Origin: Candidatus Limnocylindria bacterium
GTDB lineage: Bacteria; Chloroflexota; Limnocylindria; Limnocylindrales; CSP1-4
NCBI GenBank assembly: GCA_046566045.1
Contig: JBKHXL010000063.1
Span: forward strand, 21,460-85,459
Direction of reading: 5' to 3'
Length of the DNA: 64,000 bases
Shown: in pieces, positions 1-15,969 of the stretch
Position numbering within the stretch: the stretch's first letter is position 1
Layout: each line of letters starts with the position of its first letter
Translations under genes and position numbers: made by a program
Notes under the pieces: generated by a model
Told to the model about the DNA's origin: nothing
Databases searched by the model: none
Seen by the model: the letters and a program-made list of their open reading frames with translations, nothing else

Positions 1-2
1 GC

Positions 3-773
3 CTGACGCCCGACGTCATCTACGACCAGATGATCGCGGCCGGGGTCGCGCGCAAGCTCGTCTTCTCGTGGCTCGGGAACCCGGGCGTCGGCGGCCTCGG
101 CGCGGTCCGCCGCCGGATCGAGGGCGAGATCCCGGACGAACCCCTCGAGGTCGAGGAGTACAGCCACTTCGGGATGGTCGGGCGCTACACGGCGGGCGCG
201 ATGCACCTGCCGTTCTTCCCGCTGCGCTCGTACTTCGAGACCGACCTGCCGGTCGCCAATCCGCGCATCCAGCCGATCCGCTCCCCGTACGGCGACGAGA
301 CCATCTATGCCGTCCCGCCGCTGCGACCGGACGTCACCATCGTCCACGCCCAGCGGGCGTCGGCCGCTGGCGACACGCAGGTCTGGGGCCTGCTCGGATG
401 CCAGAAGGAGGCGGCCTTCGCAGCCGACCGGGTGATCGTGGTGGTCGAGGAGCTCGTCTCCGATGAGGTCATCCGGGCCGATCCGAACCGGACCATCATC
501 CCGGGCCTCATCGTCGACGCGGTGGTCGTCGAGCCGTGGGGCGCGCACCCGTCGTACGTCCAGGGCGCCTACGACCGGGACAACCGCTTCTACCTGGACT
601 GGGACCCGATCACCCGGTCCGAGGCGGCCGTCCAGGCGTGGCTGCGCGAGTGGGTCCACGATCTCGACGGCCGGGCAGCGTACATGGACAAGCTCGGCGC
701 GGAGCGCCAGGCGTCGCTGCGGCCGTCGGAGCCCGCGCCGTCCGGCGCGGTGGACTACGGCGCGTACCGATGA
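3..773 (+). CDS. Family I CoA-transferase subunit A (glutaconate/3-oxoadipate CoA-transferase type), 5' truncated by the window edge
   Basis: Frame is open from base 3 (LTPDVIYDQMIAAG...); motifs FSWLGNPG, EEYSH, PDVTIVHAQRA, GAHPSY; ATGA overlap with subunit B. Confidence 0.85.
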   Translation: MTPDVIYDQMIAAGVARKLVFSWLGNPGVGGLGAVRRRIEGEIPDEPLEVEEYSHFGMVGRYTAGAMHLPFFPLRSYFETDLPVANPRIQPIRSPYGDETIYAVPPLRPDVTIVHAQRASAAGDTQVWGLLGCQKEAAFAADRVIVVVEELVSDEVIRADPNRTIIPGLIVDAVVVEPWGAHPSYVQGAYDRDNRFYLDWDPITRSEAAVQAWLREWVHDLDGRAAYMDKLGAERQASLRPSEPAPSGAVDYGAYR

Positions 774-1558
774 GCGCCGCCGACCCCCGGCCGTTCACCC
801 GGTCCGAGATGATGATCGTCGCGGCGGCCCGGGCCCTCGAGGGCCAGCGGGTCTGCTTCGTCGGGGTCGGCCTGCCCAATATCGCGGTCAACCTGGCCCA
901 GCGCACGGTCGCCCCGCAGCTCGAGATGGTCTACGAGGCGGGGGTCTTCGGGGCCCGGCCGCAACGCCTTCCCCTGAGCATCGGCGACCCGACCATCGTG
1001 ACCGGCTCGACCGCCGTGGTCAGCATGTTCGAATTGTTCGGGTTCTACCTGCAGGGCGGGCTGATCGACGTCGGCTTCCTGGGGGCGGCGCAGATCGACC
1101 GGTTCGGCAACATCAACACGACCGTCATCGGCGACTACGCGGCGCCGACGACGCGCCTGCCCGGCAGCGGCGGGGCGTGCGAGATCGCGATCAACGCCCG
1201 CGAGGTGTTCGTGATCATGCGCCAGAGCGCGCGCTCGTTCGTCGAGCGCATCGACTTCCGGACGTCGCCCGGGAACCTCGGCGGTGCCGAGCAGGCCGAG
1301 CGGATCCGGCGCGAGGGCGGCTGGCTCGGGCGCGGACCGTCGGTCGTGGTGACCGACCTCGGCATCTACCGCTTCGACGAGGACGGCGAGATGCGCCTCG
1401 ATTCGCTCCACCCGGGCGCGACGGTCGTCGACGTGCGGGCCACCATCGGCTGGGACGTGCGCATCGCCGACGACCTGGCCGCCACGCCGCCGCCGACCGA
1501 GACGGAGCTGCGCCTCGTGCGCGAGGAGCTGGACCCCGGCGGCGTCTACACGAAGTAG
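770..1558 (+). CDS. CoA-transferase subunit B
   Basis: ATG at 770 overlaps the upstream TGA; FVGVGLP, MVYEAG (catalytic Glu region), GAAQIDRFGNIN, LPGSGGA, VVVTDLG. Confidence 0.88.
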   Translation: MSAADPRPFTRSEMMIVAAARALEGQRVCFVGVGLPNIAVNLAQRTVAPQLEMVYEAGVFGARPQRLPLSIGDPTIVTGSTAVVSMFELFGFYLQGGLIDVGFLGAAQIDRFGNINTTVIGDYAAPTTRLPGSGGACEIAINAREVFVIMRQSARSFVERIDFRTSPGNLGGAEQAERIRREGGWLGRGPSVVVTDLGIYRFDEDGEMRLDSLHPGATVVDVRATIGWDVRIADDLAATPPPTETELRLVREELDPGGVYTK

Positions 1559-1848
1559 CGGGGCGGGCGGGCCCTCGCGACGGCCGCGCCGTACCTCCGC
1601 CGAGTGCCGCCCGGCCCCCGGGCCGCCTCCCAGGCCACCCCCGGCCACGTTCCCTGCGCGAGCCGCCGCGCTCGCTGCGCGGACATCCCAGCGGCGGAAC
1701 CATCGGGGGACGGCATACAGGCGGTGCTCCGTAGCCGTTGTGCTCGCGTGGCGGACGACGTGGCGGGGGAGAGGCCGGTGGTGGGGGCTTCCGTCGCCCA
1801 TGTGTCCGCTCAGCGGACGCGGGCATCGGTGGCGAGCTGGCGGGTCCC

Positions 1849-2307
1849 TCAGGCGGCCGAGCCCGCGGCCGTGCCGCGCACGACGACCACCGGGCACGGG
1901 GCGTTGCGCACGACGTGATCGGACACACTGCCGAACAGGGAGCGCTCGACGCCCCGGCGTCCGTGCGAGCCGAGCACGATCAGGCCTGCCTGTTCCGCGG
2001 TGGCGGCTTCCACGATCGCCTCACCGGGGTCGCCCTCCCAGACCAGGAAGTTCGTTCGGACACCCGCCTCGCGGGCGCGTCGCACGAGGGCCTGCGCGGC
2101 GACCTCCCGCTCGCGGCGGACCTGGTCAACCCGGGCGCGGTAGCGGCCGCCGGGCAGGCGGAGCGTGCCGAGGTCGATGACGCTCACCGCGATGAGTCGG
2201 GCGCCGAGTCCCGCGGCGAGCCGGACCGCCTCCTCTTCGGCGGGCGATGAGGTGGCGGACAGGTCCGTCGCCAGCATCACCGCGTCGAACGGTCGCGGCT
2301 CGATCAT
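1849..2307 (-). CDS. Universal stress protein (USP)
   Basis: MLATDLS N-terminus; LIVLGSHGRRGVERSLFGSVSDHVVRNAPCPVVVV signature; true start is ATG at 2307 inside a longer ORF. Confidence 0.93.
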   Translation of the reverse strand: MIEPRPFDAVMLATDLSATSSPAEEEAVRLAAGLGARLIAVSVIDLGTLRLPGGRYRARVDQVRREREVAAQALVRRAREAGVRTNFLVWEGDPGEAIVEAATAEQAGLIVLGSHGRRGVERSLFGSVSDHVVRNAPCPVVVVRGTAAGSAA

Positions 2308-2342
2308 CGCGGGACGGGGGAGACGGAGGACGGGGCCATGCG

Positions 2343-2410
2343 GGCATGGTCGCGACCATGCCGGGATGCCGGAAGTGACCATGGTCCCGGAAGCGGGTGA
2401 CCTGTGGCCC
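2343..2410. promoter_or_regulatory. Candidate DosR-type operator array between the divergent usp and sensor kinase genes
   Basis: Perfect 20-bp palindrome GGCATGGTCG-CGACCATGCC (2343-2362); GTGACcatgGTCCC (2375-2388) and GTGACctgtGGCCC (2397-2410) resemble the DosR core GGGAC-N4-GTCCC. Confidence 0.55.
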
Positions 2411-2439
2411 CCCGGCGCCGCCCTGCTACGCTCCCTGCC

Positions 2440-3612
2440 ATGCGCGAGCGCCGGCTTGATCCGATCCTGGCCGAGGACACCTTCGAGGCGCTCGACGCAG
2501 CGACGCGGGCCATCGCCGAGACCCTCGACCTCGAGGCGGTCCTCCAGCTCATCGTCGAGCAGGTCCGCGACCTCGTGGACGCTCGCTACGCCGCGCTCGG
2601 GATCGCCGACGGGCATGGCCGGCTCGAGCGCTTCATCACCGTCGGGATCGATCCGGCGACGCGGGCGGCGATCGGTCCGCTGCCGGTCGGTCACGGCCTG
2701 CTCGGCGTGATCATCCGGGAGGGGCGTACCCTGCGCATCCCGGACATCGCCGCGCATCCCGATTCGTACGGCTTCCCGCCGCACCATCCGCCGATGACCT
2801 CGCTGCTGGGCGTCCCCATCACCGTGACGGGTCGGTCGATCGGCGACCTGTACCTGACCGACAAGCGTGGCGCCATCGAATTCAGCGAGGCCGACCAACG
2901 CGTCGTCGAGCTGTTCGCGCGACACGCCGGCATCGCCATCGAGAACGCCCGGCTGCACGACCGCCTGGCCGCCCTGCGCGTCGTCGCCGAGCGCGAGCGG
3001 ATCGGGCGCGACCTGCACGACGGGGTGATCCAGGGGCTGTACGCCGTCGGCCTGTCGCTCGAGGAGGTCCCGGAGCTGATCCGCGATCGGCCCGAGGAGG
3101 CCGCCGAACGGGTCGATGCCGCGATCGACGCGATCCACCGCTCGATCGGGGAGATCCGCGGCTTCATCATCGGTCTGCGGCCCGGGTTCCATTCGGCCGA
3201 CCTGGTGGCCGGCATCGCGGCCCAGGCGGACGACCTCCAGCTGAGCTCCACGATCGACGTGGAGACCGACCTCGACGTCCCGACCGCGGTCGTCGAGGCG
3301 CTGCCGGCCGACGCGCGGGGCGAGCTGCTCCACCTGGCCCGCGAGGCGCTCAGCAACGTCGTCCGCCACAGCCGGGCGACCCAGGTCCGCATCGAGATGC
3401 GGCTCGATGCCGATGACGTGGTCCTCGAGATCGCCGACAACGGCATCGGGTTCGATGCCGCGGCGCCACAGCCGGAGGGCCATCACGGCCTGCTCAACCT
3501 GCGCCAGCGCGCCGCGGCCGCCGGTGGACGGCTCGAACTCGATACCATGCCGGGGAGCGGGACGCGCCTGATCGTCCATGTCCCGACGGCAAGGGGAGCG
3601 CGCGATCGATGA
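2440..3612 (+). CDS. GAF-domain sensor histidine kinase, DosS/DevS-like (HisKA_3 + HATPase)
   Basis: GFPPHHPPM...GDLYLTDK GAF motif; ERERIGRDLHDGVIQGLY H-box; EALSNVVRHS N-box; DNGIGFD G1; leaderless (TACGCT-7nt-ATG). Confidence 0.92.
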   Translation: MRERRLDPILAEDTFEALDAATRAIAETLDLEAVLQLIVEQVRDLVDARYAALGIADGHGRLERFITVGIDPATRAAIGPLPVGHGLLGVIIREGRTLRIPDIAAHPDSYGFPPHHPPMTSLLGVPITVTGRSIGDLYLTDKRGAIEFSEADQRVVELFARHAGIAIENARLHDRLAALRVVAERERIGRDLHDGVIQGLYAVGLSLEEVPELIRDRPEEAAERVDAAIDAIHRSIGEIRGFIIGLRPGFHSADLVAGIAAQADDLQLSSTIDVETDLDVPTAVVEALPADARGELLHLAREALSNVVRHSRATQVRIEMRLDADDVVLEIADNGIGFDAAAPQPEGHHGLLNLRQRAAAAGGRLELDTMPGSGTRLIVHVPTARGARDR

Positions 3613-4289
3613 CGACACCGGAACGAGCGTCGAGTGAGCCGCCCCTGCGCCTGCTGGTGGTGGACGACCACGAGGTCGTGCGCCAGGGCCTGGTCGCCCT
3701 GCTCGACCGGCGTGAGACCTTCCAGGTCGTGGCCGAGGCCGGTACCGTGGCCGAGGCGATCGACGCCGCGCGCCGCTTCAAGCCCGACATCGTGATCATG
3801 GACGTCCGGCTGCCGGACGGCTCCGGCGTCGAGGCGTGCCGCGAGATCCGCGCCGAGTTCCCGGCCACCAGGGTGGTCATGCTGACGTCGTACCCCGACG
3901 AGGAGGCCGTGCTGTCGGCCATCGTCGCGGGCGCGGCCGGCTACCTGCTCAAGCAGATCCGGGCACGTGACCTCATCGCCGCGCTGGAGACGGTCGGCCG
4001 GGGCGGGTCGCTGCTCGACCCCGCCGTCACGGAGAAGGTCCTCGAGCGGGTGCGCCGCATCGCGTCCGGCGGCCAGACCGACGAGCTGGCGGCGCTGACC
4101 GCCCAGGAACAGCGCATCCTGATGCTCGTCGCGGAGGGCATGACCAACAAGGAGATCGCGGCCGAGATCTTCCTGTCGGACAAGACCGTCAAGAACTACG
4201 TCAGTTCGATCCTGTCGAAGCTCAACCTCGAGCGTCGCGCCCAGGCTGCCGCGTTCGTCGCCAGGCACAAGCTCGACATCGGCGGGTAG
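3609..4289 (+). CDS. NarL/DosR-family response regulator
   Basis: VVDDHEVVRQG and IMDVRLPDG receiver motifs; LuxR HTH with a DosR-like KTVKNYVS helix; ATGA overlap with the kinase. Confidence 0.95.
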   Translation: MTTPERASSEPPLRLLVVDDHEVVRQGLVALLDRRETFQVVAEAGTVAEAIDAARRFKPDIVIMDVRLPDGSGVEACREIRAEFPATRVVMLTSYPDEEAVLSAIVAGAAGYLLKQIRARDLIAALETVGRGGSLLDPAVTEKVLERVRRIASGGQTDELAALTAQEQRILMLVAEGMTNKEIAAEIFLSDKTVKNYVSSILSKLNLERRAQAAAFVARHKLDIGG

Positions 4290-4347
4290 GGCCTCGCCCG
4301 GCGCGCGCGGCGCGCGCCGCGCCTGACGGGGCCCCCTGCCGTCCGAC

Positions 4348-4401
4348 CCGGGCCGGGTCCCGGCCGGACGTGACCACCGGCACTGATGCGCAGATGCGCA
4401 T
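4348..4401. promoter_or_regulatory. Candidate DosR-like boxes plus an ArsR-type operator upstream of the sulfur-relay operon
   Basis: CCGGGccggGTCCC (4348-4361), GTGACcaccGGCAC (4370-4383), perfect inverted repeat ATGCGCA-ga-TGCGCAT (4386-4401). Confidence 0.5.
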
Positions 4402-4419
4402 ACGTCGGATGCTGCGGCC

Positions 4420-4776
4420 ATGGACGAGATCACCATCCTCCAGGCCGAGGTCCTCAAGGTGCTGGCCAGCCCGCGCCGGCTCGAGATCCTGCACTGCCTG
4501 GCCGACGGTCCCCGCGAGGTCGGGCGCATCGCGGCCGAGCTCGATCTGAGCCAGCCGAACGTCTCGCAGCACCTGGCGGTCATGCGCCAGGCCGGCATCG
4601 TCGACGCCGACCGGGTCGGTCGCGGGGTGCGCTACCGGCTGACGGATCCCGACGTGATCGTCGCCTGCGGCGTGATGCGCGCGGTGCTGGAGCGCCGCCT
4701 CCAGCGGCTTGCCGCGCTGTCGAACGGGACGGCCGTCCCGGTCCCCACCCGCATCCCCATCAGCCCCCCGAGGTGA
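4420..4776 (+). CDS. ArsR/SmtB-family repressor with two cysteines (possibly persulfide-sensing)
   Basis: LASPRRLEILHCL, SQPNVSQHLAVMR helix, YRL wing; Cys26 and Cys83. Confidence 0.9.
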   Translation: MDEITILQAEVLKVLASPRRLEILHCLADGPREVGRIAAELDLSQPNVSQHLAVMRQAGIVDADRVGRGVRYRLTDPDVIVACGVMRAVLERRLQRLAALSNGTAVPVPTRIPISPPR

Positions 4777-4781
4777 GCCCC

Positions 4782-5195
4782 ATGGACGAGTCCCTGAACC
4801 TGGTCCTGTTCTCCGGCACGGACGACAAGCTGCAGGCCGCCGCGGTCCTGACCGCCGGCGCCGCGGCGCTCGGCAAGCCGGTCAACATCTTCCTGCAGTA
4901 CTGGGCGCTGGACGCTTTCCGGGCCGATCGCATCGGCCGCGATCACGGCCTGGCCCCGGAGGCCGGCACGACCGGTCGGGAGGCCGTCGACGCCCTGGCC
5001 AGGGCCGGCCAGGCCAGCTGGGCCGAGACCCTGCGCCAGGCCAAGGACCTCGGCGCGGTGGACATCCAGGCGTGCTCGCTGTCGATGGACCTGCTGCGCC
5101 TGGACGACGGCGACCTGGACCCCCTGGTCGATGGCGTCGAGGGCGTCGCGGCCTTCTACATCAACGCTGGCGACGGCCAGATCGTCTTCATCTGA
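4782..5195 (+). CDS. DsrE/DsrF/DsrE2-like sulfur-relay protein
   Basis: LNLVLFSGTDDKLQAA...VNIFLQYWAL N-terminus; IQACSLSMDL conserved Cys; C-terminal IVFI. Confidence 0.82.
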   Translation: MDESLNLVLFSGTDDKLQAAAVLTAGAAALGKPVNIFLQYWALDAFRADRIGRDHGLAPEAGTTGREAVDALARAGQASWAETLRQAKDLGAVDIQACSLSMDLLRLDDGDLDPLVDGVEGVAAFYINAGDGQIVFI

Positions 5196-5214
5196 GCCAC
5201 GAAAGGGGCACCAC

Positions 5215-5451
5215 ATGAGCGTCGTCGAGATCACCCGGACGGTGGACGCCACGGGGCTGTCCTGCCCGTTGCCGATCGTGCGGACCGCACAGGCCAGCAA
5301 GGTCCTTCCGTCCGGTGCCGTCATCGAGGTGCTGGCCACCGACGCGGGGTCGATCAAGGACTTCGCGGCCTGGTGCAAGGCGACCGGCAACGAGCTCATC
5401 GAGCAGACCGTGGATGACGGCGTGTACCGCTTCGTCATCCGCCGGAAGTGA
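5215..5451 (+). CDS. tusA: TusA-family sulfurtransferase
   Basis: VDATGLSCPLP (CPxP) motif, LATDAGS..DF.AW, RFVIRR; SD GAAAGGGG. Confidence 0.92.
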   Translation: MSVVEITRTVDATGLSCPLPIVRTAQASKVLPSGAVIEVLATDAGSIKDFAAWCKATGNELIEQTVDDGVYRFVIRRK

Positions 5452-5459
5452 GACACGAC

Positions 5460-6011
5460 ATGACCACCGCCACGATCGACGCGCCGGCCGCCGAGCCCGC
5501 CGCCGAGGCCGCCGCCGAGGCCGCCGCCGAAGCGCGCCCCAAGGAGTTCCTGATCATCGACTACAGCGGTGACCTCGAGAAGGTCTGGGCGTCGATGATC
5601 CTGGCCTCCACGAGCGCCGCCATGGGCGTCCGGACCCGCGTCTTCGTCACGTTCTGGGGCCTCCAGGCGTTCGTCAGGGACGAGCGCCGGGTGACCGGTC
5701 GGAACTGGATGCAGAAGATGCTGTCGGTGCTGCAGCGCCCGGGGATCAGCCACCGGAAGCTCAGCAGGATGGACGTCTTCGGCATGGGCCCCTGGATGAT
5801 GCGCAAGCTCGCCGCGCAGTACCACGTCGCCAGCCCCAAGGAGCTTCTCGAGGCTGCCCAGGCGATGGGCGTCGAGTTCATCCCGTGCCAGATGACCATG
5901 GACATGTTCGGCCTCACGCCGGACGACATGATCGAGGGCATGAGCGAGCCGGTCGGTGCGGCCACCGTCATCGGCCTGCTGACCGAAGACTCCGTCCCGC
6001 TGTTCATCTGA
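5460..6011 (+). CDS. DsrE2/DsrE3-family (DrsE-like) sulfur-relay protein
   Basis: YSGDLEK..ASMILASTSAAMG..VFVTFWGL; FIPCQMTMDMFG conserved Cys; VGAAT; C-terminal PLFI. Confidence 0.88.
   Translation: MTTATIDAPAAEPAAEAAAEAAAEARPKEFLIIDYSGDLEKVWASMILASTSAAMGVRTRVFVTFWGLQAFVRDERRVTGRNWMQKMLSVLQRPGISHRKLSRMDVFGMGPWMMRKLAAQYHVASPKELLEAAQAMGVEFIPCQMTMDMFGLTPDDMIEGMSEPVGAATVIGLLTEDSVPLFI
5487..5534 (+). repeat. Four copies of a 12-bp tandem repeat encoding AAE(P/A)
   Basis: gccgccgagccc / gccgccgaggcc x2 / gccgccgaagcg in the N-terminal linker of the second DsrE. Confidence 0.85.
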
Positions 6012-6031
6012 CCGCGAAAGGATTCACCGTC

Positions 6032-6277
6032 ATGACCGAGACCGCCACCACCGTCACCCGCACCGTGGATGCCCGCGGCAGCTTCTGCCCCGGGCCGCTG
6101 ATGGAGCTCATCCGCGCCATCCGCGAGTCCGAGGTCGGCGATGTCATCGCCGTCCTGTCGTCCGACAAGGGTTCCAAGGTGGACATCCCCACGTGGGTCG
6201 AGAAGGCCGGCCACCGCCTGGTCGCCCTCGAGGCCCGCGACGGCCACGACGAGATCGTCGTCGAGAAGCGTCGCTAG
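6032..6277 (+). CDS. tusA: TusA-family sulfurtransferase (second copy)
   Basis: VDARGSFCPGP (CPxP) motif, LSSDKGSKVDIPTWV; SD AAAGGA. Confidence 0.9.
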   Translation: MTETATTVTRTVDARGSFCPGPLMELIRAIRESEVGDVIAVLSSDKGSKVDIPTWVEKAGHRLVALEARDGHDEIVVEKRR

Positions 6278-6290
6278 GAAGGACCCTGAC

Positions 6291-7448
6291 ATGCAGCGGA
6301 TCGTCATCCTGGGCGGCGGCGTCGGAGGGACGCTGACTGCCAATCTCCTGGCCAAGCGGCTGCGCACGCGCATCGACGCCGGCGAGGTCGAGCTCGTCGT
6401 GGTGGACGCCACCGGGACGCACGTCTACCAGCCCGGGTTCATGTACATCGCCATGGGCGGGGAGAAGGCGGCGAACCTGGAGCGCCCGGAGCGCTCGCTG
6501 CTCGACAAGCGAGTGACCCTGCTCGTCGGTGACGTCGTGCGCGTCGACGAGACGCGCCGGGTGATCGCCCTGGCCGACGGCATGGAGCTGGGTTACGACC
6601 AGCTCGTGCTGGCGACCGGATCGCGCATCGCCCCGGAGGCGATCCCGCACTTCGACGAGGAGGCCCACCACTTCTACACCGCCGCGGCCTCGGCCCGGCT
6701 GCGGGCCGCACTCGACGCGTTCAGGGGCGGTCGCATCGTGATCGGCATCGCCGGCATGCCCTACAAGTGCCCGCCGGCGCCGCTCGAGGTCGCCTTCCTC
6801 ATCGAGGCGGAGCTGCGCGAGCGCGGCCTGCGCGAGCGGACCACGCTCGACTACTGCTCACCCATCGGGCGCGCGTTCACCATCGAGAGCGTGTCCGGGA
6901 TGGCCACGCCGATCCTGGAGCAGAAGGGCATCGAGCTGCACACGTTCTTCAACGTCGAGGCGATCGATCCCGAACGCAAGGTCGTGCAGTCGCTCGAGGG
7001 AGAGGAGCTGCCCTACGATCTGCTCATCCTCGTTCCGCCGCACACGGGCCAGCCGTTCCTGATGGACTCCGGCCTGGCGCCCGCGCCGGGCGGCTGGCTG
7101 CCGACCGACCGGCACACGCTGCTCGTCGGCGACCGGACCGATGTGTACGCCCTGGGCGACGCCACCGACCTGCCGCTGTCCAAGGCCGGGTCGACGGCGC
7201 ACTTCGAAGCGCCGATCGTGGCCGAGCGGATCGCGGCGGCCATCGAGGGCCGCGAGCCCTCCGGGAAGCATGCCGACTACGAGGGCAAGGTCATGTGCTT
7301 CTTCGAGGTCGGGGACGGCAAGGGCACGCTGCTGCAGTTCGACTACGACCACCCGCCCAGGCCGCCGAAGCCGAACCAGTTGTGGCACCTGGGCAAGATC
7401 GTCTTCAACAAGACGTACTGGCACACGGTCCCCAAGGGCCGGGTCTAG
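6291..7448 (+). CDS. sqr: Sulfide:quinone oxidoreductase-like flavoprotein (type III/SqrC-like)
   Basis: IVILGGGVGG Rossmann motif, HVYQPG, YKCPPAPLE active-site Cys, YALGDA, KAGSTAH, YEGKVMCF second Cys, C-terminal amphipathic K.YW helix. Confidence 0.85.
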   Translation: MQRIVILGGGVGGTLTANLLAKRLRTRIDAGEVELVVVDATGTHVYQPGFMYIAMGGEKAANLERPERSLLDKRVTLLVGDVVRVDETRRVIALADGMELGYDQLVLATGSRIAPEAIPHFDEEAHHFYTAAASARLRAALDAFRGGRIVIGIAGMPYKCPPAPLEVAFLIEAELRERGLRERTTLDYCSPIGRAFTIESVSGMATPILEQKGIELHTFFNVEAIDPERKVVQSLEGEELPYDLLILVPPHTGQPFLMDSGLAPAPGGWLPTDRHTLLVGDRTDVYALGDATDLPLSKAGSTAHFEAPIVAERIAAAIEGREPSGKHADYEGKVMCFFEVGDGKGTLLQFDYDHPPRPPKPNQLWHLGKIVFNKTYWHTVPKGRV

Positions 7449-7478
7449 GCCACGCGAGGCACTGACGGGAGGAACGGC

Positions 7479-7913
7479 ATGCTCTCGAACATACTGCTCG
7501 CCGTCGACGGCAGCGACGCCGCACTTGGGGCCGCTCGGGCGGCCGCCGCGCTGGCGGCTGCGACGGGCGGATCCATCCGGGTCCTGAGCGTCCATCACGA
7601 GCCCGCCGATTCGCTCGGCGAGCCGCTCTACTCCGCCTCGTTGGACCGTTCCCTCGACGAGGCGGAGGAGCACCTCTCCGCCGCGGTCGCCGCGATCCGA
7701 GCGGCCGGCGGCCCTGAGCCGACGATCGACCGGCTGGCCGGCCATCCGGCGGACGCGATCCTGTCCGCGGCCGACGCGGGCCACCACGACGTGATCGTCC
7801 TGGGCAACCGCGGCCGCGGCCGCGTGGCCGCCGCACTGCTCGGCTCGGTCTCGACGGCCGTGGCCTCGCGGGCGAGGATCCCGGTCCTCATCATCCCGCA
7901 CGAGGCGGGCTGA
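7479..7913 (+). CDS. Universal stress protein (USP)
   Basis: ILLAVDGSD; DVIVLGNRGRG...LLGSVS..VA..ARIPVLII. Confidence 0.93.
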   Translation: MLSNILLAVDGSDAALGAARAAAALAAATGGSIRVLSVHHEPADSLGEPLYSASLDRSLDEAEEHLSAAVAAIRAAGGPEPTIDRLAGHPADAILSAADAGHHDVIVLGNRGRGRVAAALLGSVSTAVASRARIPVLIIPHEAG

Positions 7914-7929
7914 ACCCACGCCGACGCGA

Positions 7930-7961
7930 CGGCGCCCCCGGTCGGCCGACCGGGGGCGCCG
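7930..7961. terminator. Perfect 32-bp palindrome between convergent genes, likely bidirectional terminator
   Basis: cggcgcccccggtcgg-ccgaccgggggcgccg. Confidence 0.7.
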
Positions 7962-7985
7962 CGCTGTGCTCGGCCGCGGAGCGGC

Positions 7986-10900
7986 CTACTTGAACTGGAA
8001 GGTCGCGCTGTGCGTGGTGCCGTCGACCAGCTTCACGTCGAGGCGATAGCACGAGCCCTTGTACGTCTTGGCCGTCTTCCAGACGTAGGTATAGCGCTCG
8101 GACACGGGGTCGTACTGGAGACCGCTGGACCCGTTCGACACCACCTCTTCGATCGTGTCCTCCGCCACGCTCGTCGCGCAGGTGATCTTGGTCGCCTTCG
8201 GGAAGCCGGTGGCGAAGATCCCGGTCAGGCCCCGGTCCCCGCCGAGCGAGAACTTGATCGGGATGCTGCTGCCGGCGGTCGCCGTGTTGCGGACCGCGTT
8301 GTCGACGGGGGAGTAGAACCCGCCCCACGGCCAGATGATCAGCGACGCCTCGGCTGACGACATCGATGCCTCGTAGATCGGATCCGTCAACGTCGTCGTC
8401 AAGGTTCCGGTCCACGGGTTGAGAGGGATGGTTCCGCTGAAGTACGCCCGGACCTCGTACGGTCCGACCGGCAAGTCTGGGGTGGAGCCAAGGTTGGCGG
8501 TGCCGTCGGCGCCGGTCGTCACCGACTTCGTCAGGCCGAAGCCCATCGTCGTGCCGGAACCGGTCCCCTCTAGAACGAAGAACACCGTTCGGGAGCCGAC
8601 CGCGGTGCCGGAGCCATCGGGCGCCCGCAGCGTCGCTGAGATGCCGCTCGCCCCGCCAACCGTCGCGTCGGGAGCGGTCAGGACCAGGCTGGTCGACTGC
8701 TTCGTGATCGTGAACGACGTCGCGTCGCCGCTCGACGCATGCGTCGCGTCCCCGGAGAAGGTGGCCGTGAGTTGCTGGGTGCCCGGCGTGGCGATGAGCG
8801 GCAGCGACGCCGAGGCGACACCGCCGGCGTCGGTCGTCGCGGTCACGACCGACGTCCCGATGCGGAACGAGACGGTCCGGCCGGTGAGCGCGCCCGGGCC
8901 GGTCAGCGTCGCGGACACGCTCGTGCTCGCCCCGTACGTGCCGGACGAACCGGCCGTCAGGACCAGGGTCGACGCGGCGGGCTGCGGCGCCGGGATCGTG
9001 GCGAGGGAGTGGTACGCGCCCTGGTTGTCGTTGATGCCGACGAGGGCGGCCCGGTTCGCGGCCTGGACGATGAAGCGCAGGTCGGCCGGGTCATCATCGA
9101 CGCCGATGCTCAGTGTCGCCGACCAGCTCGACGGATCCATGGCGCTGCGGACCAGCGGCACCGACGCCCAGCACGTGCAGCCGTCGTTGCCGTAGGTGTA
9201 GGTGATCCAGGCGGACTGGATGTTGTCAGCGCCATCGGGATCGGTGCCGCTGATGATCGCCGTGAAGGTGACGGTCGAGCCCGACAGGTCGGCGTCGACC
9301 GCGCCGATGGTGGGTGCCGCGGCCTGACCCGCGATCGGGTCGTTGGCGGGCACGTAGAACAGCTTGAGGCCCAGGCTGGAGAACAGCCGCCTCGTGACCG
9401 GGTCGGTGCCGACCCTGTGCTGCGCCGGCGTGACCACGAGGTTGGTGGACCCACCGGAGAGGTCCCCGAAGTAGCTGGCAGCCCACATCCGGGCCGGGAA
9501 GAAGGTGGTCGACGTGAACGGCGTCTGCGCGCCACCGAACTCGGTGCCCGGTGCGCCCGTGAACGGGGTGACCCCGTTCGTGTCGGTGAAGGCACCGCTC
9601 CAGAAGCCGATGCCACGGAGGACCTTGCCCGACAGGCCGACGTTCGCCACGTAGCGCGACAGGGCCGGCTCGCCCGGGTTGGATGCGACGCCGTCAGGCC
9701 CGCTCAGATAGGTCGAGCCACCGGGCCCCGCGTTGGACGTGGTCGGGATGGGATTCGGGCCCCCACCTCCCAGGTCGAGGGTGCCGATGGTGACCGCCCC
9801 GTCCGTGGACGTGGACGTCACGATCGAGCCGCTCGAACCGCTCGTGTCGCGCGTCCCGGGCATGTCCACCGAGAACATCGGCAGGCCGAAGACGCTGGCC
9901 GTGAGGATGGCCTTCTGGTGCATCCCTTGACCTCGGGCGTGGCCGCGAGGTAGGCGAGCTTCGATGCATTGAGCGCCTGGCCGACCGCGACCGGGCCCGT
10001 CCCGACGCGCAGCTGGTGCGCGAACTCGGCGTAGATCCGCTCGCTGTACTCGATCAGCTCGTCGTCGCCGTACTGGAAGCCCGTGCCGGCGACCAGGGTC
10101 GCGCCCTTGCGGCCGAGGACCTGGGCCCAGTCGGCCGTCTGGGTGACGCCGCTGATGCCGTGCGCATCGACGAGGTTGTAGCCGGCATGGCAGCCGATGC
10201 TGAACACCAGGGCGTTCATCAGGTCGACGTCCGGAGCCAGCAGCTCCGAGGCGTTGACCGTCGTCTGCAGGTCGGCCGCGAGCGTCGCCGAGGCATCGAA
10301 GTGGCCGGCGAGGTAGACGATGTCATTCCGGGTGGGGCCAAGGAGGCTGGCCCGCAGGTCGTTCGCCGTCCAGGTGTCGTTGATCAGCGTGGCCGGCGTC
10401 GCGCCGGTGCCGGCGGCGAGCTGGTCCGTGACCTCATTCGAGGAGTCCGTCAGGAACTCGTACCCGGTCACCAGCGACGAGCCGGGGGTGACGGTCTTGA
10501 CCGTCGTGCCCTGGACGTAGGCGTCGATCATCGCCGACGCCTCTGCTGCGGTCTCGACCAGGCGCCCGACGGCAAGGTCGGGGATCGGGAAGCGGGTCCC
10601 GCCGAGCGAGAGGACCGTGCTCGCACCGTACTCGTCCTGCCCAAGGACATGGTCGCTGCGCAGGACGGCCTCGGAGGAGGTGCCGGCGCCGAGCGGCGGG
10701 ACGAACCAGGATTCCGGGGCGAGGTCGGACGGATCCGGATAGCGGAAGAACGGCACCGACGTGTCGCCCCCGACCAGCACGACGTACTGCAGGTTCGGGT
10801 TGTCGTAGGTCCGGACGACGTCACGGATGGCCGACGCGACCAGGTTCTGGGCGTAGACACAGTCCTGGTTGGCATCAGCCTGGGCGTGCAGCGCGGCGAT

Positions 10901-11325
10901 CCGGGCGTTCGTGCCGACGTCCACGACCACGCCGTCGGTGGCCAGGGCGAGGGACTGGAGGCGGCCTTCGAGGGTCGTCGTCTCGGCGGCGGTCCCCGCG
11001 ATCCGACTGCGATCCCAGACGATCACGCTGTCGTTACCGGATCCGGCCGAGCCGACCGCGGGGCGGTCCCGATCGGCGCCACGTCGGCGCACACGTTGTT
11101 CGTCGTGATCGAGATCATGAACGGCGAAATTCACGTCATAGGCGCCGTTCTTGCCGGTGACGTGGACGTAGAAGTAGCCGTCGTTGGTCCAGGTGTTCGC
11201 CGGGATCGTCGCGGCACCCGTGCCTTCGGCGACATTCCAGCCGACGAGGCTGTTCCTCGCCGCGGCGGCGTAGGCGCCGTAGATCTCGTCGCCGACGTAG
11301 TTCGGGTTGCCGATGAAGTTCGGAG
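7986..11325 (-). pseudogene. Large secreted-type protein (clan CD/C25 gingipain-like peptidase, Ig-like repeats, C-terminal PxKF domain); 5' truncated and frameshifted
   Basis: YVVLVGGD..VPF, PDLAVGRL, YLAGHF...FSIGCH dyad; C-terminal GFYSPVD..GSSIPIKFSL..YTYVWKT (PxKF); homopolymer indels at about 9925, 11061 and 11128; no start codon or signal peptide. Confidence 0.7.
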
Positions 11326-14300
11326 CAGCGCTCGCGGGCGGACTCGTGGTCGCTCGCCATGCTATCCATCCAGGCCAGGTTGACATTGCAGGTCCCGATG
11401 CGCCGGCGGTCGCCCAACGTCGTGTACAGCGACAGCGCCCGCTCGGCATAGGCCCGCGCTGCCTCGGGATCGCCCTGCTGCTGCGCCACGATCCCGAGAT
11501 TGTTGGTCAGGCCGGCCATCCCGGCCGGATCCTCGAGTCGCTCGCGGATCTCGAGCGCCTCGAGGTACCGGGTCCGTGCCTGGGCGACATCCCCTCGCTG
11601 GGCGGCCACGGTCCCGAGGATCTGCAGGACGTCCGCCGCGCCGGCGTCATCGCCGATGGCGCGGAATCGTTCGAGCGCGCGCAGGAGGATGGCGCCGGCC
11701 TCGTCGAACCGTCCGCCGCGGCGAGCCGATTCCGCGAGGGAGTGGTCGCTCCGAGCCACGAGCCACTGGTCGTCGTGGGCATCGGCGATCGCCCGGGCAT
11801 CCGTGGCCACCGCCTCAGCCCGGCCGACGTCGCCGGTGATGTGGAAGAGCTCGGCGAGCGTGAGCAGCCGCTCCACCCGGTCGGTGCCCTCGAGCAGGGG
11901 GATGAGCCGCTCGAGGTAGCGGATCGCCGCGCCGTTCGCGTAGGCGGCACGGGCCGCCTCGGCCGCGCGCCCGAGGTAGGTGCGTTTGCGCTCGCCGTCG
12001 TCGCTCAGCCAGAAGTGGTGGGCCAGCAGGTCGAGTCGCCGCTCGACGCCGTCCGGGTCCGACGTCTCCAGCCATGACCCGATGCGGCCGTGCAGCAGGG
12101 TCCGGATGGCGAACGGCAGGCTCTCGTAGGCGACCTCCTGGGTCGCCACGTGCTTGAACAGGTAGGCCTGGTCGGCCGCCCGGTCGAGGTTGACCAGGTC
12201 CGCGGCCCGCAGCGCGTCGAGGTGGGCGACGACCTCGTCGAGGTCGCCAAGCTCCGGGTACGCGCCGGGCAGGGCGGGCGCCTCGAACACGCGCCCCACG
12301 ACGCTCGCCACATTGAGCGTCCGGCGCGGCTCCTCGGCCATGTGGTCGATGCGCGACAGGACCAGGCTGTGCAGGCTCTCCGGCAGCTCGAGCGCCCGCA
12401 GAGCGTCCGCGTCGCGCAGGTCCACGTCGCGCGACGTGATGAAGCTGATCAGCTCCTCGATGTAGAACGGGTTGCCGCCCGCGCGTTCGGACACGAGCGC
12501 GACGAGGTCGTCGCTCGGGCCCGCATCGTCGCCACCGGGCAGGACCTGCTCCAGCTTCAGGCGGATGAGGGCGGCCGCCTCGTCGCTGCCGAGCGAGTCG
12601 AGGGTCAGCTCATGGAAGTCGGGGATCCCTTCGACGCCCAGCCCGCCACCGACCTGGGACGCTGGCCGGTAGGCGAGCACGATCAGCACCGGCAGCGCCG
12701 CGGTCGCCCGACCGAGGACGTCGAGCAGGTCGCGCGACAGGGGATCGATCCAGTGGCAATCCTCGAGCACGAGGACGAGCGGCTCGTCCGTGGCGCGAGC
12801 TCGCAGGCAGACGGCCAGGAGGTTCTCCAGCGAGGCCTTGCGGACCTTGGCGTCGAGCGACGAGGTCAGGTCGTTGTCCGGGATGTCGAGGTCGAGGAGC
12901 GAGGACAGGAGCGGGGCGCGCGGCACGAGCGCGGGGTCGACGGCCGCCAGCCGGGCTTCCACCCGAGCCCGCTGCCGTTCGACCGACTCGTCGTCCTCCA
13001 GGCCGAACAGGCGGCGCCAGATCTCCCGCCACACGAAGTGACTCGCGTGGGTGCCGAACGACTGGCACTCCCCGAAGGCGACGAACAGGCCGCGCCGCCG
13101 CGCGCCGCGCACGAACTCCGCGACGAGGCGCGACTTGCCCATGCCGGCCTCCGCCGCGATGCCGACGATCCGCCCGTCGCCCTCGATGGTCAGGCGCAGG
13201 GCGTCGTCCAGGCTGGCCAGCTCGGCCTGCCGACCGACGAGGTCGAGCTCGAAGCGCGTCTTGCGCCGCGACGCGCGCTCGAGCGATCCGGTCAGGGCGT
13301 GGGCCACGATCGTGGCGGTCTTGCCCTTGACGGTCAGGTCCGGCAGGCGCTCCCACAGGTACGCGTCGCCGGCCTCCTGGCGGACGGCGTCCTCGACGTA
13401 GACGGCGCCGGGCGGCGCTTTCGGCATGAGACGCGCCGACAGGTTGACCGCGTCGCCGAGGCAGACGAACGTGCGGCGCATGGCATGGCCGTACGTGCCG
13501 CTGCGCAACCGGCCGTGGGTCAGCCCGATCTGGATGTCCGTCGCGTTCGTCGTCCGCTCGAGGTCGCGCAGCTCGAGCGCCGCGGCCGCCCCACGAGCCG
13601 CATCGTCCTCGTGGGCGACCGGCGAGCCGAACACGCCGTACAGGTAGGCGCCCTTGTCGCCGAGGGTCAGCTGGAGGACGTTGCCGCCGTAGCCGGCCAT
13701 GATCCGCTGGGCGCGCCGGACGAAGTCGTCGAGCTGCGCGATGGCGTCCTCGTCGTCGTAGTCGATGTCGCCGAAGCGCAGGAAGACCGGATAGGCCGGC
13801 CGCAGCTCGGTCAGGAACTCGCCCCGGCCGGTGGTCAGGCGCTCGTAGGCCTCGGGCAGCAGCCACGGCCGAACCAGTGTCTCGTCCAGGCGAGGCGGCT
13901 CGACCACGTCCTGCACCGGGACGTCCGCGCGCAGCCGTCCGACGACCCCGAAGACCCGGCCGCTCGCCCCGTCCACCCGCCGCTCGACGAGCTCGACCCG
14001 GTCGGCCAGCGAGGCGACCGTCGACGGCTCGAGCACGACCTCGCCCTTCTCGGCGTGGTGCTCCGCCTCGGCCAGGTCGTCGATGAGCGCGCCCGCCAGC
14101 ACGTCGATGAGCTGGATCTCCGGGTCGCCGACGACGAAGCGGCGGGCCCGGCCGGTGGCGACCGCGACCTTGAGGGCCAGCGCGACCGTCGCGCCACCGG
14201 GCGTGGTGATGGTCCCCTCGCGGGCCATCGCCTGCTGCATGGCCAGGGCGGCGGCCGTCGCGCGCGACCCGTCGTCGCCGTCCAGCCAGCACGTGATCGC

Positions 14301-14585
14301 ATCGCCCGAGAAGTAGATGACCTCGCCGCCGCGCCGGTCGAGCTCCTCGATGACGGCGTGGAAGACCCGGCCGAGGTTGGCCGTCAGCTCCTCGGCGCCG
14401 CGCTGCGATCCGAGCTCGTTCGCGAGCGCCTCGGTCAGGGGGGTGAAACCCGAGATGTCGGCGAACAGGGCCGAGCCGTGGACGCGGTCCGACATCGTCT
14501 CGTGCCGGGCCAGGGCCCAGCGGCGGTCGCGCGCGATGTACGCCTCGGGGTCGTCGCGAGCGAGGTCACGAGGAGGCGCCGACAT
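11326..14585 (-). pseudogene. Class III adenylate/guanylate cyclase + AAA (STAND-like) ATPase + TPR protein, 3' truncated
   Basis: FADISGFT..GDA cyclase motif, second degenerate cyclase (GDKG), AEAGMGKSRL Walker A, LVLEDCHWID Walker B, TPR repeats; after ...ARERC the frame runs out of register into the peptidase gene up to a chance stop at 11136. Confidence 0.8.
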
Positions 14586-14628
14586 GCGCACCATCGTACG
14601 GCCCGCGACGGCTACGATGCGTTCGATG
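14583..14628. promoter_or_regulatory. Back-to-back leaderless promoters
   Basis: TACGAT-7nt-ATG on both strands (minus -10 at 14593-14598, plus -10 at 14613-14618). Confidence 0.65.
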
Positions 14629-15969
14629 CCCGCTCGCGTCCTTCGTCGTTCGACCGTCCCCGATCCGCCCGTGGCCGTGTCGGCCAGCGGGTCGTGGATC
14701 ACTGCCCGCGACGGCCGCCGCTACCTCGACGCGGCCGGCGGGGCGATCGTGGTCAACGTCGGGCACGGGCGGCGCGAGATCGCCGCGACGATGGCCGACC
14801 AGGCCGGCCGGCTGGCGTATGCCCACGGCAGCGCCTTCACGACCGAGCCGGTCGAGGCGTACGCGCGGGCCCTGGGCGACATCCTGCCCCTCGACGCTCC
14901 GGCCATCTACCCCGTGTCCGGCGGATCCGAGGCGATCGAGACCGCGCTCAAGCTGGCCCGGGCCTACCACCTGGCCCGGGGCGAGGGCTCGCGCGACGTG
15001 GTCATCGCACGCCACGGCAGCTACCACGGCAACACCCTCGGGGCGCTCGACCTGTCCGGCCGGCCGCCGCTGCGACGGCCCTACGAGCCGTGGCTGGGCC
15101 GCTTCACCCACGTGGCGGCGGCGTATCCGTACCGCGCCACGGACGCGGGCCGCTGGGCCCTGGGCGACACGGTCGCCCTGGTGGCCGATGTCGAGGCGGC
15201 CATCCGCGCCGCCGGACCCGATCGCGTCGCCGCGTTCGTGGCCGAGCCCATCGTGGGCGCGACGCTGGGCGCGGTCGTGCCGCCGGACGACTACTGGCCG
15301 GCCGTGGCCGAGGTCTGTCGGCGGCACGGCATCCTGCTCGTCGCGGACGAGGTGATGACCGGGTTCGGACGGACCGGGCGCTGGTTCGGGGTCGATCACT
15401 GGGGCGTCCGGCCCGACCTCCTCGTGGCGGCCAAGGGCGCCACGTCGGGCTACTGGCCGTTCGGCTTCGTGGCCGCCGCCGACCCGGTGGTCCGCGCGGT
15501 GACGGCGCCCGGGGCGGGGTTCGTCCACGGCTTCACCTACAGCCACGCGCCGGTCGGGGCGGCGGTCGCGCTGGAGGTCCTGCGCATCCTCCGGGACGAG
15601 GACCTCGTCGCGGCGTCGGCGGACCGGGGCGCCCGGCTGCGCCACCTCGTGGAGGACCGCTCGGGCGCCCATCCGGCCGTCGGCGAGATCCGCGGTCGCG
15701 GCCTGCTCGTCGGCATCGAGCTCGTGGCCGACCGCCCGTCACGCCGCCCGTTCCCGCGAGCCGCCCGCGTCACGGAGGCGGTCGTCGGCGCAGCCCGCGA
15801 CCGGGGCGTCCTGGTCTACTCCGGGACCGGCAACGCCGACGGCACGGACGGGGACACGATCCTGCTCGGGCCGCCGTTCGTGGTCGAGGAGGATGAGCTG
15901 GTGACCATCGCCGACGTGCTTGCCGAGGCGATCGACGCGGCCGTGGCGGCACGGGCCGCCGGCGCCTAG
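14626..15969 (+). CDS. Class III PLP aminotransferase (omega-amino acid/beta-alanine type)
   Basis: GRRYLDAAGG, SYHGNT, FVAEPIVG, ADEVMTGFGRTG, AAKG (PLP Lys), HGFTYS. Confidence 0.92.
   Translation: MPARVLRRSTVPDPPVAVSASGSWITARDGRRYLDAAGGAIVVNVGHGRREIAATMADQAGRLAYAHGSAFTTEPVEAYARALGDILPLDAPAIYPVSGGSEAIETALKLARAYHLARGEGSRDVVIARHGSYHGNTLGALDLSGRPPLRRPYEPWLGRFTHVAAAYPYRATDAGRWALGDTVALVADVEAAIRAAGPDRVAAFVAEPIVGATLGAVVPPDDYWPAVAEVCRRHGILLVADEVMTGFGRTGRWFGVDHWGVRPDLLVAAKGATSGYWPFGFVAAADPVVRAVTAPGAGFVHGFTYSHAPVGAAVALEVLRILRDEDLVAASADRGARLRHLVEDRSGAHPAVGEIRGRGLLVGIELVADRPSRRPFPRAARVTEAVVGAARDRGVLVYSGTGNADGTDGDTILLGPPFVVEEDELVTIADVLAEAIDAAVAARAAGA

Follow-up and report, generated by a model that had tools for sequence, protein, structure and literature searches.

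A locus at positions 1849-7913 of a 64,000-nucleotide stretch of a Candidatus Limnocylindria genome (Chloroflexota; assembly GCA_046566045.1, contig JBKHXL010000063.1, positions 21,460 to 85,459), hereafter the window, was analysed for a possible link between gas sensing and sulfide metabolism. With somewhat better than even confidence, we read it as a two-component system of the DevS/DevR (DosS/DosR) type, predicted to sense hypoxia or gas, together with one of its target operons, arsR-dsrE-tusA-dsrE-tusA-sqr, where sqr encodes a type III-like sulfide:quinone oxidoreductase (SQR). The evidence that carries this reading lies in the promoters. Tandem boxes of the DevR/OsdR type stand at about 90% of the arsR-sqr promoters of relatives and at the kinase promoter, which lends strong support to the proposal of a first-pass annotation that a gas-sensing two-component system activates the sulfur operon, although the regulation as such is a prediction. 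The conserved boxes suggest that low oxygen, or possibly sulfide itself, turns on sulfide detoxification.

The window has a G+C content of about 72%. At the locus, a gene for a universal stress protein (usp1) diverges from the genes of the kinase and the response regulator, and these are followed in the same direction by the sulfur operon and a second universal stress protein gene, usp2. All ten genes of the order given in the first-pass annotation were present with the expected domains, called with Pfam; the SQR and DsrE2 models were taken from NCBIfam. The short or overlapping gaps it described from arsR onward were likewise found, with spacers of -4 to 30 nt, and the kinase and response regulator genes overlap by 4 nt. 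The features are as follows.

1849-2307, minus strand: usp1, universal stress protein, 152 aa, divergent from the kinase and response regulator genes (Pfam Usp, 3.1e-33)
2375-2388, unstranded: Dev-like box 1 of the usp1/kinase promoter, GTGACCATGGTCCC, fitting GKGMC-N4-GKCMC
2397-2410, unstranded: Dev-like box 2 of the usp1/kinase promoter, GTGACCTGTGGCCC, fitting the same pattern and overlapping GTG 2404
2440-3612, plus strand: DevS/DosT-like kinase, 390 aa, with a single GAF, HisKA_3 and HATPase_c (Pfam); the longest open reading frame (ORF) runs from GTG 2404
3609-4289, plus strand: DevR/DosR-like response regulator of the NarL family, 226 aa (Pfam Response_reg and GerE)
4370-4383, unstranded: proximal Dev-like box, GTGACCACCGGCAC, in the promoter of the arsR operon; its start is at -50 relative to the arsR ATG
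4386-4401, unstranded: candidate ArsR operator, 7-2-7 palindrome ATGCGCA-GA-TGCGCAT
4408-4413, plus strand: -10-like hexamer GATGCT, 6 nt before the arsR ATG, in a conserved CGAT-N-c-T block
4420-4776, plus strand: arsR, Rv0081-like regulator of the ArsR/SmtB family, 118 aa (Pfam HTH_5)
4782-5195, plus strand: DsrE2-like sulfur carrier a, 137 aa (Pfam DrsE_2, 52.8 bits)
5215-5451, plus strand: TusA-like sulfur carrier 1, 78 aa, with Cys17 in CPxP (Pfam TusA, 1.3e-23)
5448-6011, plus strand: DsrE2-like sulfur carrier b, 187 aa, with a variable N-terminus (Pfam DrsE_2, 2.6e-37, 128.6 bits)
6032-6277, plus strand: TusA-like sulfur carrier 2, 81 aa, with Cys19 in CPxP (Pfam TusA, 5.7e-21)
6291-7448, plus strand: type III-like SQR, 385 aa (Pfam Pyr_redox_2; NCBIfam type III SQR, 8.7e-99)
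7479-7913, plus strand: usp2, universal stress protein, 144 aa (Pfam Usp, 1.8e-29)

A scan of a genome collection with DsrE-like protein b gave 376 relatives, of which the best 80 (68-86% identity) were used; all of them were Chloroflexota metagenome-assembled genomes labelled Ca. Limnocylindrales or Limnocylindria. Comparison of the ten window proteins with their loci by tblastn showed dsrE-tusA-dsrE-tusA-sqr in nearly all of these best 80 of 376, with arsR ahead of it in most. Sixteen relatives had the operon without arsR (L002, L007, L009, L010, L024, L025, L027, L029, L032, L033, L040, L056, L060, L075, L076 and L078). The two flanking universal stress protein genes that had been pointed out are both present in the window, but usp2 follows sqr in just 3 of 58 relatives and is a lineage-specific addition at the operon end. 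In other relatives sqr was followed by an aminotransferase, an Ig-like secreted protein, an OsmC-like protein or a universal stress protein gene, and in six (L026, L036, L043, L051, L064 and L074) by a gene for a hemerythrin-domain protein. Two contigs carried, besides the main operon, a second, divergent arsR-dsrE-tusA copy of about 52-58% identity (L019 1189-2700 and L074 14113-15600).

The boxes follow the pattern GKGMC-N4-GKCMC, with the 5-N4-5 geometry of the DevR type. In the spacer between usp1 and the kinase gene, GTGACCATGGTCCC starts at 2375 and GTGACCTGTGGCCC at 2397, i.e., 22 bp apart. The pattern agrees with the Streptomyces OsdR consensus AGGGCCGATCGGCCCT (PMC5069765), and one relative, L015, has GGGCCGATCGGCCC literally. 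At least one box was present in 50 of the 57 arsR upstream regions, as compared to 2.5% of random 163-nt segments, and the box starts clustered at -49/-50 (39 of 57), -71/-72 (16) and -94/-95 (12) from the arsR start codon. A two-component system nearby made no difference to their frequency, which was 33 of 37 without and 11 of 12 with one. Boxes were kept in 11 of the 16 operons lacking arsR; in L075, a box at -49 and a -10 hexamer stand directly ahead of dsrE. At least one strict box was also found in 23 of 30 orthologous kinase promoters, mostly as 22-bp tandems, and this included loci without the sulfur operon. Tandem pairs numbered 87 in 2.06 Mb of sequence, versus a single pair in the reversed sequence. 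Thirty-seven of them were located at arsR and 21 at kinase/usp promoters, 58 together, and others preceded dsrE in operons without arsR and genes for universal stress proteins, a multicopper oxidase, a NirK-like protein, a [NiFe]-hydrogenase small subunit and a DoxX-like protein.

This arrangement resembles what is known for characterised regulators. The Dev boxes of Mycobacterium tuberculosis are tandem and helically phased, with positions of about -42.5 and -63.5, and among the operons under their control is Rv0079-Rv0081, which includes an ArsR-type regulator (PMC3177182); OsdR boxes are found upstream of its own gene and of universal stress protein genes, and such boxes at the own promoter are the autoregulation signature of DevR and OsdR (PMC5069765, PMC3177182). 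Judged by sequence, the Limnocylindria system likewise has tandem, helically phased palindromic boxes both at its own promoter and at its presumed target promoters. Raw counts in the window gave no such picture: the mycobacterial core GGGAC-N4-GTCCC was not enriched when up to two mismatches were allowed (74 found, 114 expected), nor was GKGMC-N4-GKCMC (8 found, 5.3 expected). What marks the boxes is where they lie, how they are phased and how well they are conserved, rather than their number. A perfect box within the 3' end of arsR (4726-4739, 56 nt before the first dsrE) occurred in the window only and was set aside as a chance match.

Tandem boxes outside the arsR and kinase promoters were recorded ahead of genes for multicopper oxidase, NirK-like protein, [NiFe]-hydrogenase, universal stress protein, DoxX-like protein and acetyl-CoA hydrolase/transferase at L009 1828 and 3705, L002 2125, L062 1827, L074 1483, L080 13167-13225 and L044 4031. 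The genes preceded by such boxes may be regarded as a putative hypoxia regulon of the clade, resembling the DosR and OsdR regulons. Two further elements were noted near usp1. A strict box, GTGCCGCCCGGCCC, lies at 1604-1617 of the window in the 290-bp gap between the end of a CoA-transferase gene and the 3' end of usp1, and a perfect 20-bp palindrome, GGCATGGTCGCGACCATGCC, lies at 2343-2362, on the stretch that separates the start codon of usp1 from the two Dev-like boxes; the palindrome is apparently not conserved in orthologous spacers.

The best solved relative of the response regulator was DevR (3c3w, 7.2e-57, 48% identity), and the alignment kept both the DVRLPDG segment with the phosphorylated Asp and the recognition helix KTVKNYVS, whose match to DosR the first-pass annotation had noted. 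The regulator thus has a receiver domain, a GerE/LuxR helix-turn-helix and the Lys/Lys/Asn of the KTVKN helix that contact DNA. When the kinase GAF was compared with PDB entries by phmmer, the GAF-A domains of DevS (2y8h, 1.7e-39) and DosT (2vzw, 1.5e-37) ranked far ahead of cNMP-type GAFs (about 1e-5); identity with M. tuberculosis DevS GAF-A was 47.6% over 147 ungapped residues. H128 and Y150 of the 402-aa ORF, which are H116 and Y138 of the 390-aa protein, align with DevS H149 and Y171, so both the 22-residue spacing and the match to the DevS heme pocket described earlier hold. The proximal His and distal Tyr were invariant in 13 kinase orthologs and in 120 homologs, as was the phospho-accepting His in the 120 homologs. 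By these matches the domain is a close homolog of the heme-binding GAF-A of DevS/DosT, and it probably binds heme; the identity of its ligand is likewise a prediction.

The kinase has one GAF (residues 41-180) with HisKA_3 directly after it at 196 according to Pfam, in place of the GAF-A and GAF-B tandem, and the family has a median length of 394 aa in the 120 homologs. The position of DevS E87 was Gly in 114 of these 120, as G85 of DosT. Most likely translation starts at ATG 2440, giving 390 aa, rather than at GTG 2404, because the GTG sits within a promoter box and the exact 390-aa protein is on record (P0001). A -10-like hexamer, TACGCT, was found at 2427-2432, 7 nt upstream of this ATG.

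At the arsR promoter, a GAT(A/G)(G/C)T hexamer ending 6 nt ahead of the ATG was conserved, and no Shine-Dalgarno sequence precedes arsR, while the first dsrE, both tusA genes, sqr and usp2 each have one. We infer that the arsR mRNA is leaderless, and the boxes would therefore lie near -43.5, -65.5 and -87.5. Between the proximal box and the hexamer stands a second element, TGCGCAT. Column conservation anchored on the ATG was blurred by indels, and a position matrix for the promoter was built by anchoring on TGCGCAT instead. The element occurred at -24/-25 in 55 of 58 arsR promoters, in none of the 30 kinase promoters and in one of the 16 operons lacking arsR; the palindrome ATGCGCA-N2-TGCGCAT was present with at most one mismatch in 30 of 58. 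Since it tracks arsR, it is a likely ArsR operator. The boxes and TGCGCAT appear to be the sites of two different proteins, because operons without arsR lose TGCGCAT (15 of 16) and keep the boxes (11 of 16).

Several observations weigh against reading the locus as a DevS/DevR-type system with its target operon. Firstly, among the 49 loci with enough flanking sequence, the two-component system lay at most 10 kb upstream of the sulfur operon in only 12, where the response regulator was 80-90% identical, and the divergent usp gene with kinase and regulator adjoined the operon directly in one other locus only, L001. The first-pass annotation had itself named missing synteny of the two in relatives as speaking against its proposal, and on this count the proposal fared badly: judged by synteny alone, the link is weak. 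The genes in between vary and include YceI, pyruvate:ferredoxin oxidoreductase, flavodoxin-like proteins and NirK-like nitrite reductase. Around kinase orthologs, a sulfur operon was near in L163, and none was nearby in L162 and L164. Secondly, all loci belong to one clade, and the counts are not independent events. Thirdly, the leaderless start and the -43.5 position depend on a weak -10-like hexamer, the scan for the sigma-70 consensus being empty. Fourthly, the position of DevS H89 was Ala, Val or Ser and in none of the 120 homologs His, so that the distal network of Tyr171, Glu87 (Gly85 in DosT) and His89, whose roles are described for DevS/DosT (PMC4082495), is not reproduced; without a GAF-B and an equivalent of H89, the ligand behaviour of the kinase may differ from that of DosS and DosT. 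In addition, neither a persulfide dioxygenase nor a rhodanese or sulfite exporter was found among the operon genes, the regulation as a whole is deduced from DNA and protein comparisons, and the proteins that actually bind the boxes could be paralogous DevR-like regulators.

The last point is the alternative that survives best, though we consider it unlikely. The boxes would be real but bound by a paralogous regulator of the NarL/LuxR family and not by the response regulator at 3609-4289, and the adjacency would be an inherited neighbourhood. It draws on the two-component system being adjacent in about 24% of loci only, with variable genes between, on L155 and L160, whose contigs carry more than one kinase-regulator pair of this type, and on DevR-like recognition helices being common to paralogs. 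However, the 22-bp-phased tandem boxes stand at the promoter of this very system in the 23 of 30 orthologs mentioned, as expected of an autoregulated DevR or OsdR (PMC3177182, PMC5069765), and the regulator keeps the DNA-contacting residues of DevR. An adjacency of 24% is also far above chance, which we put at roughly 0.25% for random placement within 10 kb, taking a genome of about 4 Mb. The usp-kinase-regulator arrangement itself is kept in relatives, in a backbone of an aminotransferase gene, two CoA-transferase genes, the divergent usp gene with kinase and regulator, and YceI. More distant kinase homologs from a metagenome scan, mostly on short or distant contigs, had no sulfur genes nearby.

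A second alternative gives the operon essentially to ArsR, as a persulfide-sensing repressor like SqrR, BigR or CstR, and treats DevS/DevR as an unrelated hypoxia module upstream. We regard it as quite improbable. It has in its favour that arsR comes first in the operon at most loci and has a conserved palindromic element in its promoter, that an invariant Cys83 (57 of 57 orthologs) could be persulfidated, and that known sulfide-detoxification operons are controlled in this way (PMC10054925, PMC12344995). The Cys pair in α2 and α5 that forms the polysulfide bridge in SqrR, BigR and HlyU (PMC10054925) is, however, absent: C26 was found in 2 of 57 orthologs, and the position aligned with the α2 sensing Cys of HlyU is an invariant His, H25. 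The closest solved relative was the hypoxia regulator Rv0081 (6jmi, 6.2e-14), ahead of BigR (1.2e-9) and SqrR (1e-7). Moreover, 11 of the 16 loci without arsR still have Dev-like boxes, and this explanation leaves the phased boxes unaccounted for. By its residues, then, this ArsR is not a two-Cys persulfide sensor of the BigR/SqrR type. The earlier idea of a Cys-containing ArsR that represses sulfide oxidation keeps its invariant Cys83 and a candidate operator, but the second Cys, C26, is missing from nearly all orthologs. The likeness of this ArsR to Rv0081 comprises the best match and a promoter with Dev-like boxes and a palindrome, but H25 and C83 are invariant here, whereas Rv0081 has no Cys and no metal site (10.1101/465575). 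A role as α5 or α3 metal sensor was rejected, as the ligand positions did not fit; this check was made by alignment offset only. Instead of a dithiol switch, the invariant His25 and α5 Cys83 might point to chemistry of a metal, of heme or of a single Cys. A lead, and no more than that, comes from SqrR and YgaV, where heme is bound by the α2 Cys (PMC12344995).

The sulfur genes form a coherent set. The flavoprotein matched the type III SQR model NF049943 with 8.7e-99 over residues 2-383; its 331 bits are below the cutoff of 525 bits, which applies to the selenoprotein subtype that the model describes. It begins with the FAD motif (GxGxxG) in ILGGGVGG. Against human SQOR (1.2e-31), C160 and C336 aligned with the catalytic C201 and C379; C160, C189 and C336 were conserved, the redox pair C160/C336 in 68-70 of 70 orthologs. 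The carrier proteins reached the Pfam cutoffs, and their active-site Cys was invariant in each family: C98 of DsrE2-like protein a in 74 of 74, C17 of TusA 1 (LSCPLP) in 78 of 78, C147 of DsrE2-like protein b in 81 of 81 and C19 of TusA 2 (SFCPGP) in 79 of 79. The DsrE proteins are called DsrE2-like and not DsrE2 in the strict sense, because the cutoff of the NCBIfam DsrE2 equivalog model was not reached (69.8 bits for protein b). With this, the earlier assignment of an SQR with DsrE and TusA carriers stands. TusA and DsrE proteins serve in biosynthetic sulfur relays of other organisms. We think it very improbable that the cluster serves such biosynthetic traffic (for a TusA-type cofactor or the thiolation of tRNA) or handles another sulfur compound, and that the flavoprotein is a disulfide reductase other than an SQR: the score below the model cutoff and the missing persulfide dioxygenase and rhodanese would agree with it, but the full-length alignment, the conserved catalytic Cys pair and the induction of the same SQR-TusA-DsrE2 set by H2S in an H2S-oxidising organism (PMC10205796) speak for sulfide.

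For the DevS/DevR-type system and its target operon, we propose the following sequence of events. The single-GAF kinase would bind heme through its conserved proximal His, the distal Tyr being conserved as well, and most likely acts as a direct O2 sensor of the DosT kind in view of the Gly at the E87/G85 position. Its active states would be the deoxy form and the forms with NO or CO bound, and sulfide may be a further ligand. The kinase would phosphorylate the DevR-like regulator, which would then bind the helically phased tandem boxes, GKGMC-N4-GKCMC, at its own usp/kinase promoter and those centred near -43.5, -65.5 and -87.5 of the leaderless arsR-dsrE-tusA-dsrE-tusA-sqr transcript, and would activate transcription. 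The Rv0081-like ArsR may auto-repress the same promoter through the TGCGCAT palindrome, between the -35 and -10 positions, until a signal at the invariant Cys83 and/or His25 lifts the repression. The operon products would oxidise sulfide at the membrane, where quinone would take up the electrons from the type III SQR, and the sulfane sulfur would probably go to the two pairs of TusA and DsrE2-like carriers. Which protein binds which element, and whether it activates or represses, is thus predicted, as is the flow of sulfur, while the homologies, conserved residues, cis-elements and their positions are direct observations.

Low O2 is the likeliest signal because of the DosT-like Gly in the kinase. 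Sulfide is an attractive alternative, because DosS can sense H2S: its ferric form binds H2S, and DosR is activated (PMC9062744). A bolder version, which we think doubtful, makes the single-GAF kinase the physiological sulfide sensor, in which H2S at the heme would directly switch on the SQR operon and ArsR, with its His25/Cys83 pair, would form a second checkpoint that responds to sulfane sulfur or heme. If true, this would be the first case in nature of sulfide catabolism placed under DosS-type heme-based H2S sensing, and would hint at an ancestral role of the sensor family.

In the rest of the window, a protein with PALP and CBS domains, similar to cystathionine beta-synthase, is encoded at 41782-43212 on the plus strand and could be an endogenous source of H2S in the same genome region. 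A large signalling regulator is encoded near the locus at 11136-14702 on the minus strand, a protein of 1188 aa with an adenylate/guanylate cyclase domain, an AAA_16 ATPase and TPR repeats. A search of window positions 1-12000 against Rfam gave no matches, and the scans for sigma-70 promoters and intrinsic terminators gave none either. A GC-rich hairpin after the response regulator gene was rejected as a terminator, being no more stable than shuffled sequence (z = -1.18).

To our knowledge, DosS/DosT-DosR has been studied almost only as a mycobacterial dormancy switch, and we know of no SQR operon under DosR in M. tuberculosis, nor of an obvious metabolic output for H2S sensing there. In an abundant clade of soil Chloroflexota, a sensor and regulator of this kind appear to govern a dedicated operon for sulfide oxidation and sulfur relay in addition to genes for universal stress proteins, nitrite reductase, multicopper oxidase and hydrogenase. 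Heme-based gas sensing and sulfide metabolism would then be joined in nature in a way open to testing, biochemistry would gain a minimal sensor with a single GAF, and a hypoxia regulon is predicted for an ecologically common lineage without cultures. The data also point to a distinct Rv0081-like ArsR subgroup with invariant His and Cys heading sulfide-oxidation operons.

Four known systems come closest. SqrR/BigR/HlyU and CstR share a small winged-helix repressor that heads an SQR operon, a palindromic operator in its own promoter and a conserved α5 Cys. The Limnocylindria ArsR differs from SqrR/BigR/HlyU in the invariant His in place of the α2 Cys, the one conserved Cys and Rv0081 as closest solved relative, and its operon in having no persulfide dioxygenase or rhodanese (PMC10054925). 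In Methylacidiphilum fumariolicum SolV, the operon MFUM_v2_0219-21 encodes the same three protein families, type III SQR, TusA and DsrE2; it is up in sulfide-adapted cells and is proposed to convert H2S to sulfur (PMC10205796). Here, in contrast, the genes run in reverse order, there are two carrier pairs instead of one and an arsR gene leads, and for SolV no control of the DevSR type is described. OsdK/OsdR of Streptomyces coelicolor has an essentially identical GC-rich palindromic box, AGGGCCGATCGGCCCT, placed at its own gene and at universal stress protein genes (PMC5069765), but belongs to another phylum and has no reported sulfur-oxidation target. DosS/DosT-DosR of M. tuberculosis is alike in most parts, i.e., the heme-type GAF with proximal His and distal Tyr, the HisKA_3 kinase, the NarL-type regulator with KTVKNYVS, a universal stress protein gene beside the two-component system, tandem, helically phased 5-N4-5 boxes and the ArsR-type Rv0081 among the targets (PMC3177182, PMC4082495). 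It differs in having GAF-A and GAF-B in 578 aa instead of one GAF in about 390 aa; at the E87 and H89 positions the Limnocylindria kinase has the DosT-like Gly and Ala/Val. The half-site is GKGMC here and GGGAC in M. tuberculosis, the host here is a member of the Chloroflexota, and the SQR/TusA/DsrE target has no counterpart reported for DosR. The first-pass annotation knew of no description of this combination, and none of the papers in the literature collection searched links DosR-type regulation with an SQR operon; the SQR-TusA-DsrE2 operon (PMC10205796) and DosR control of Rv0081 (PMC3177182), however, are both published. What appears to be new by this comparison is a hypoxia regulon of the DevSR type that has recruited a sulfide-oxidation operon, while the SQR-TusA-DsrE2 module itself was already described.

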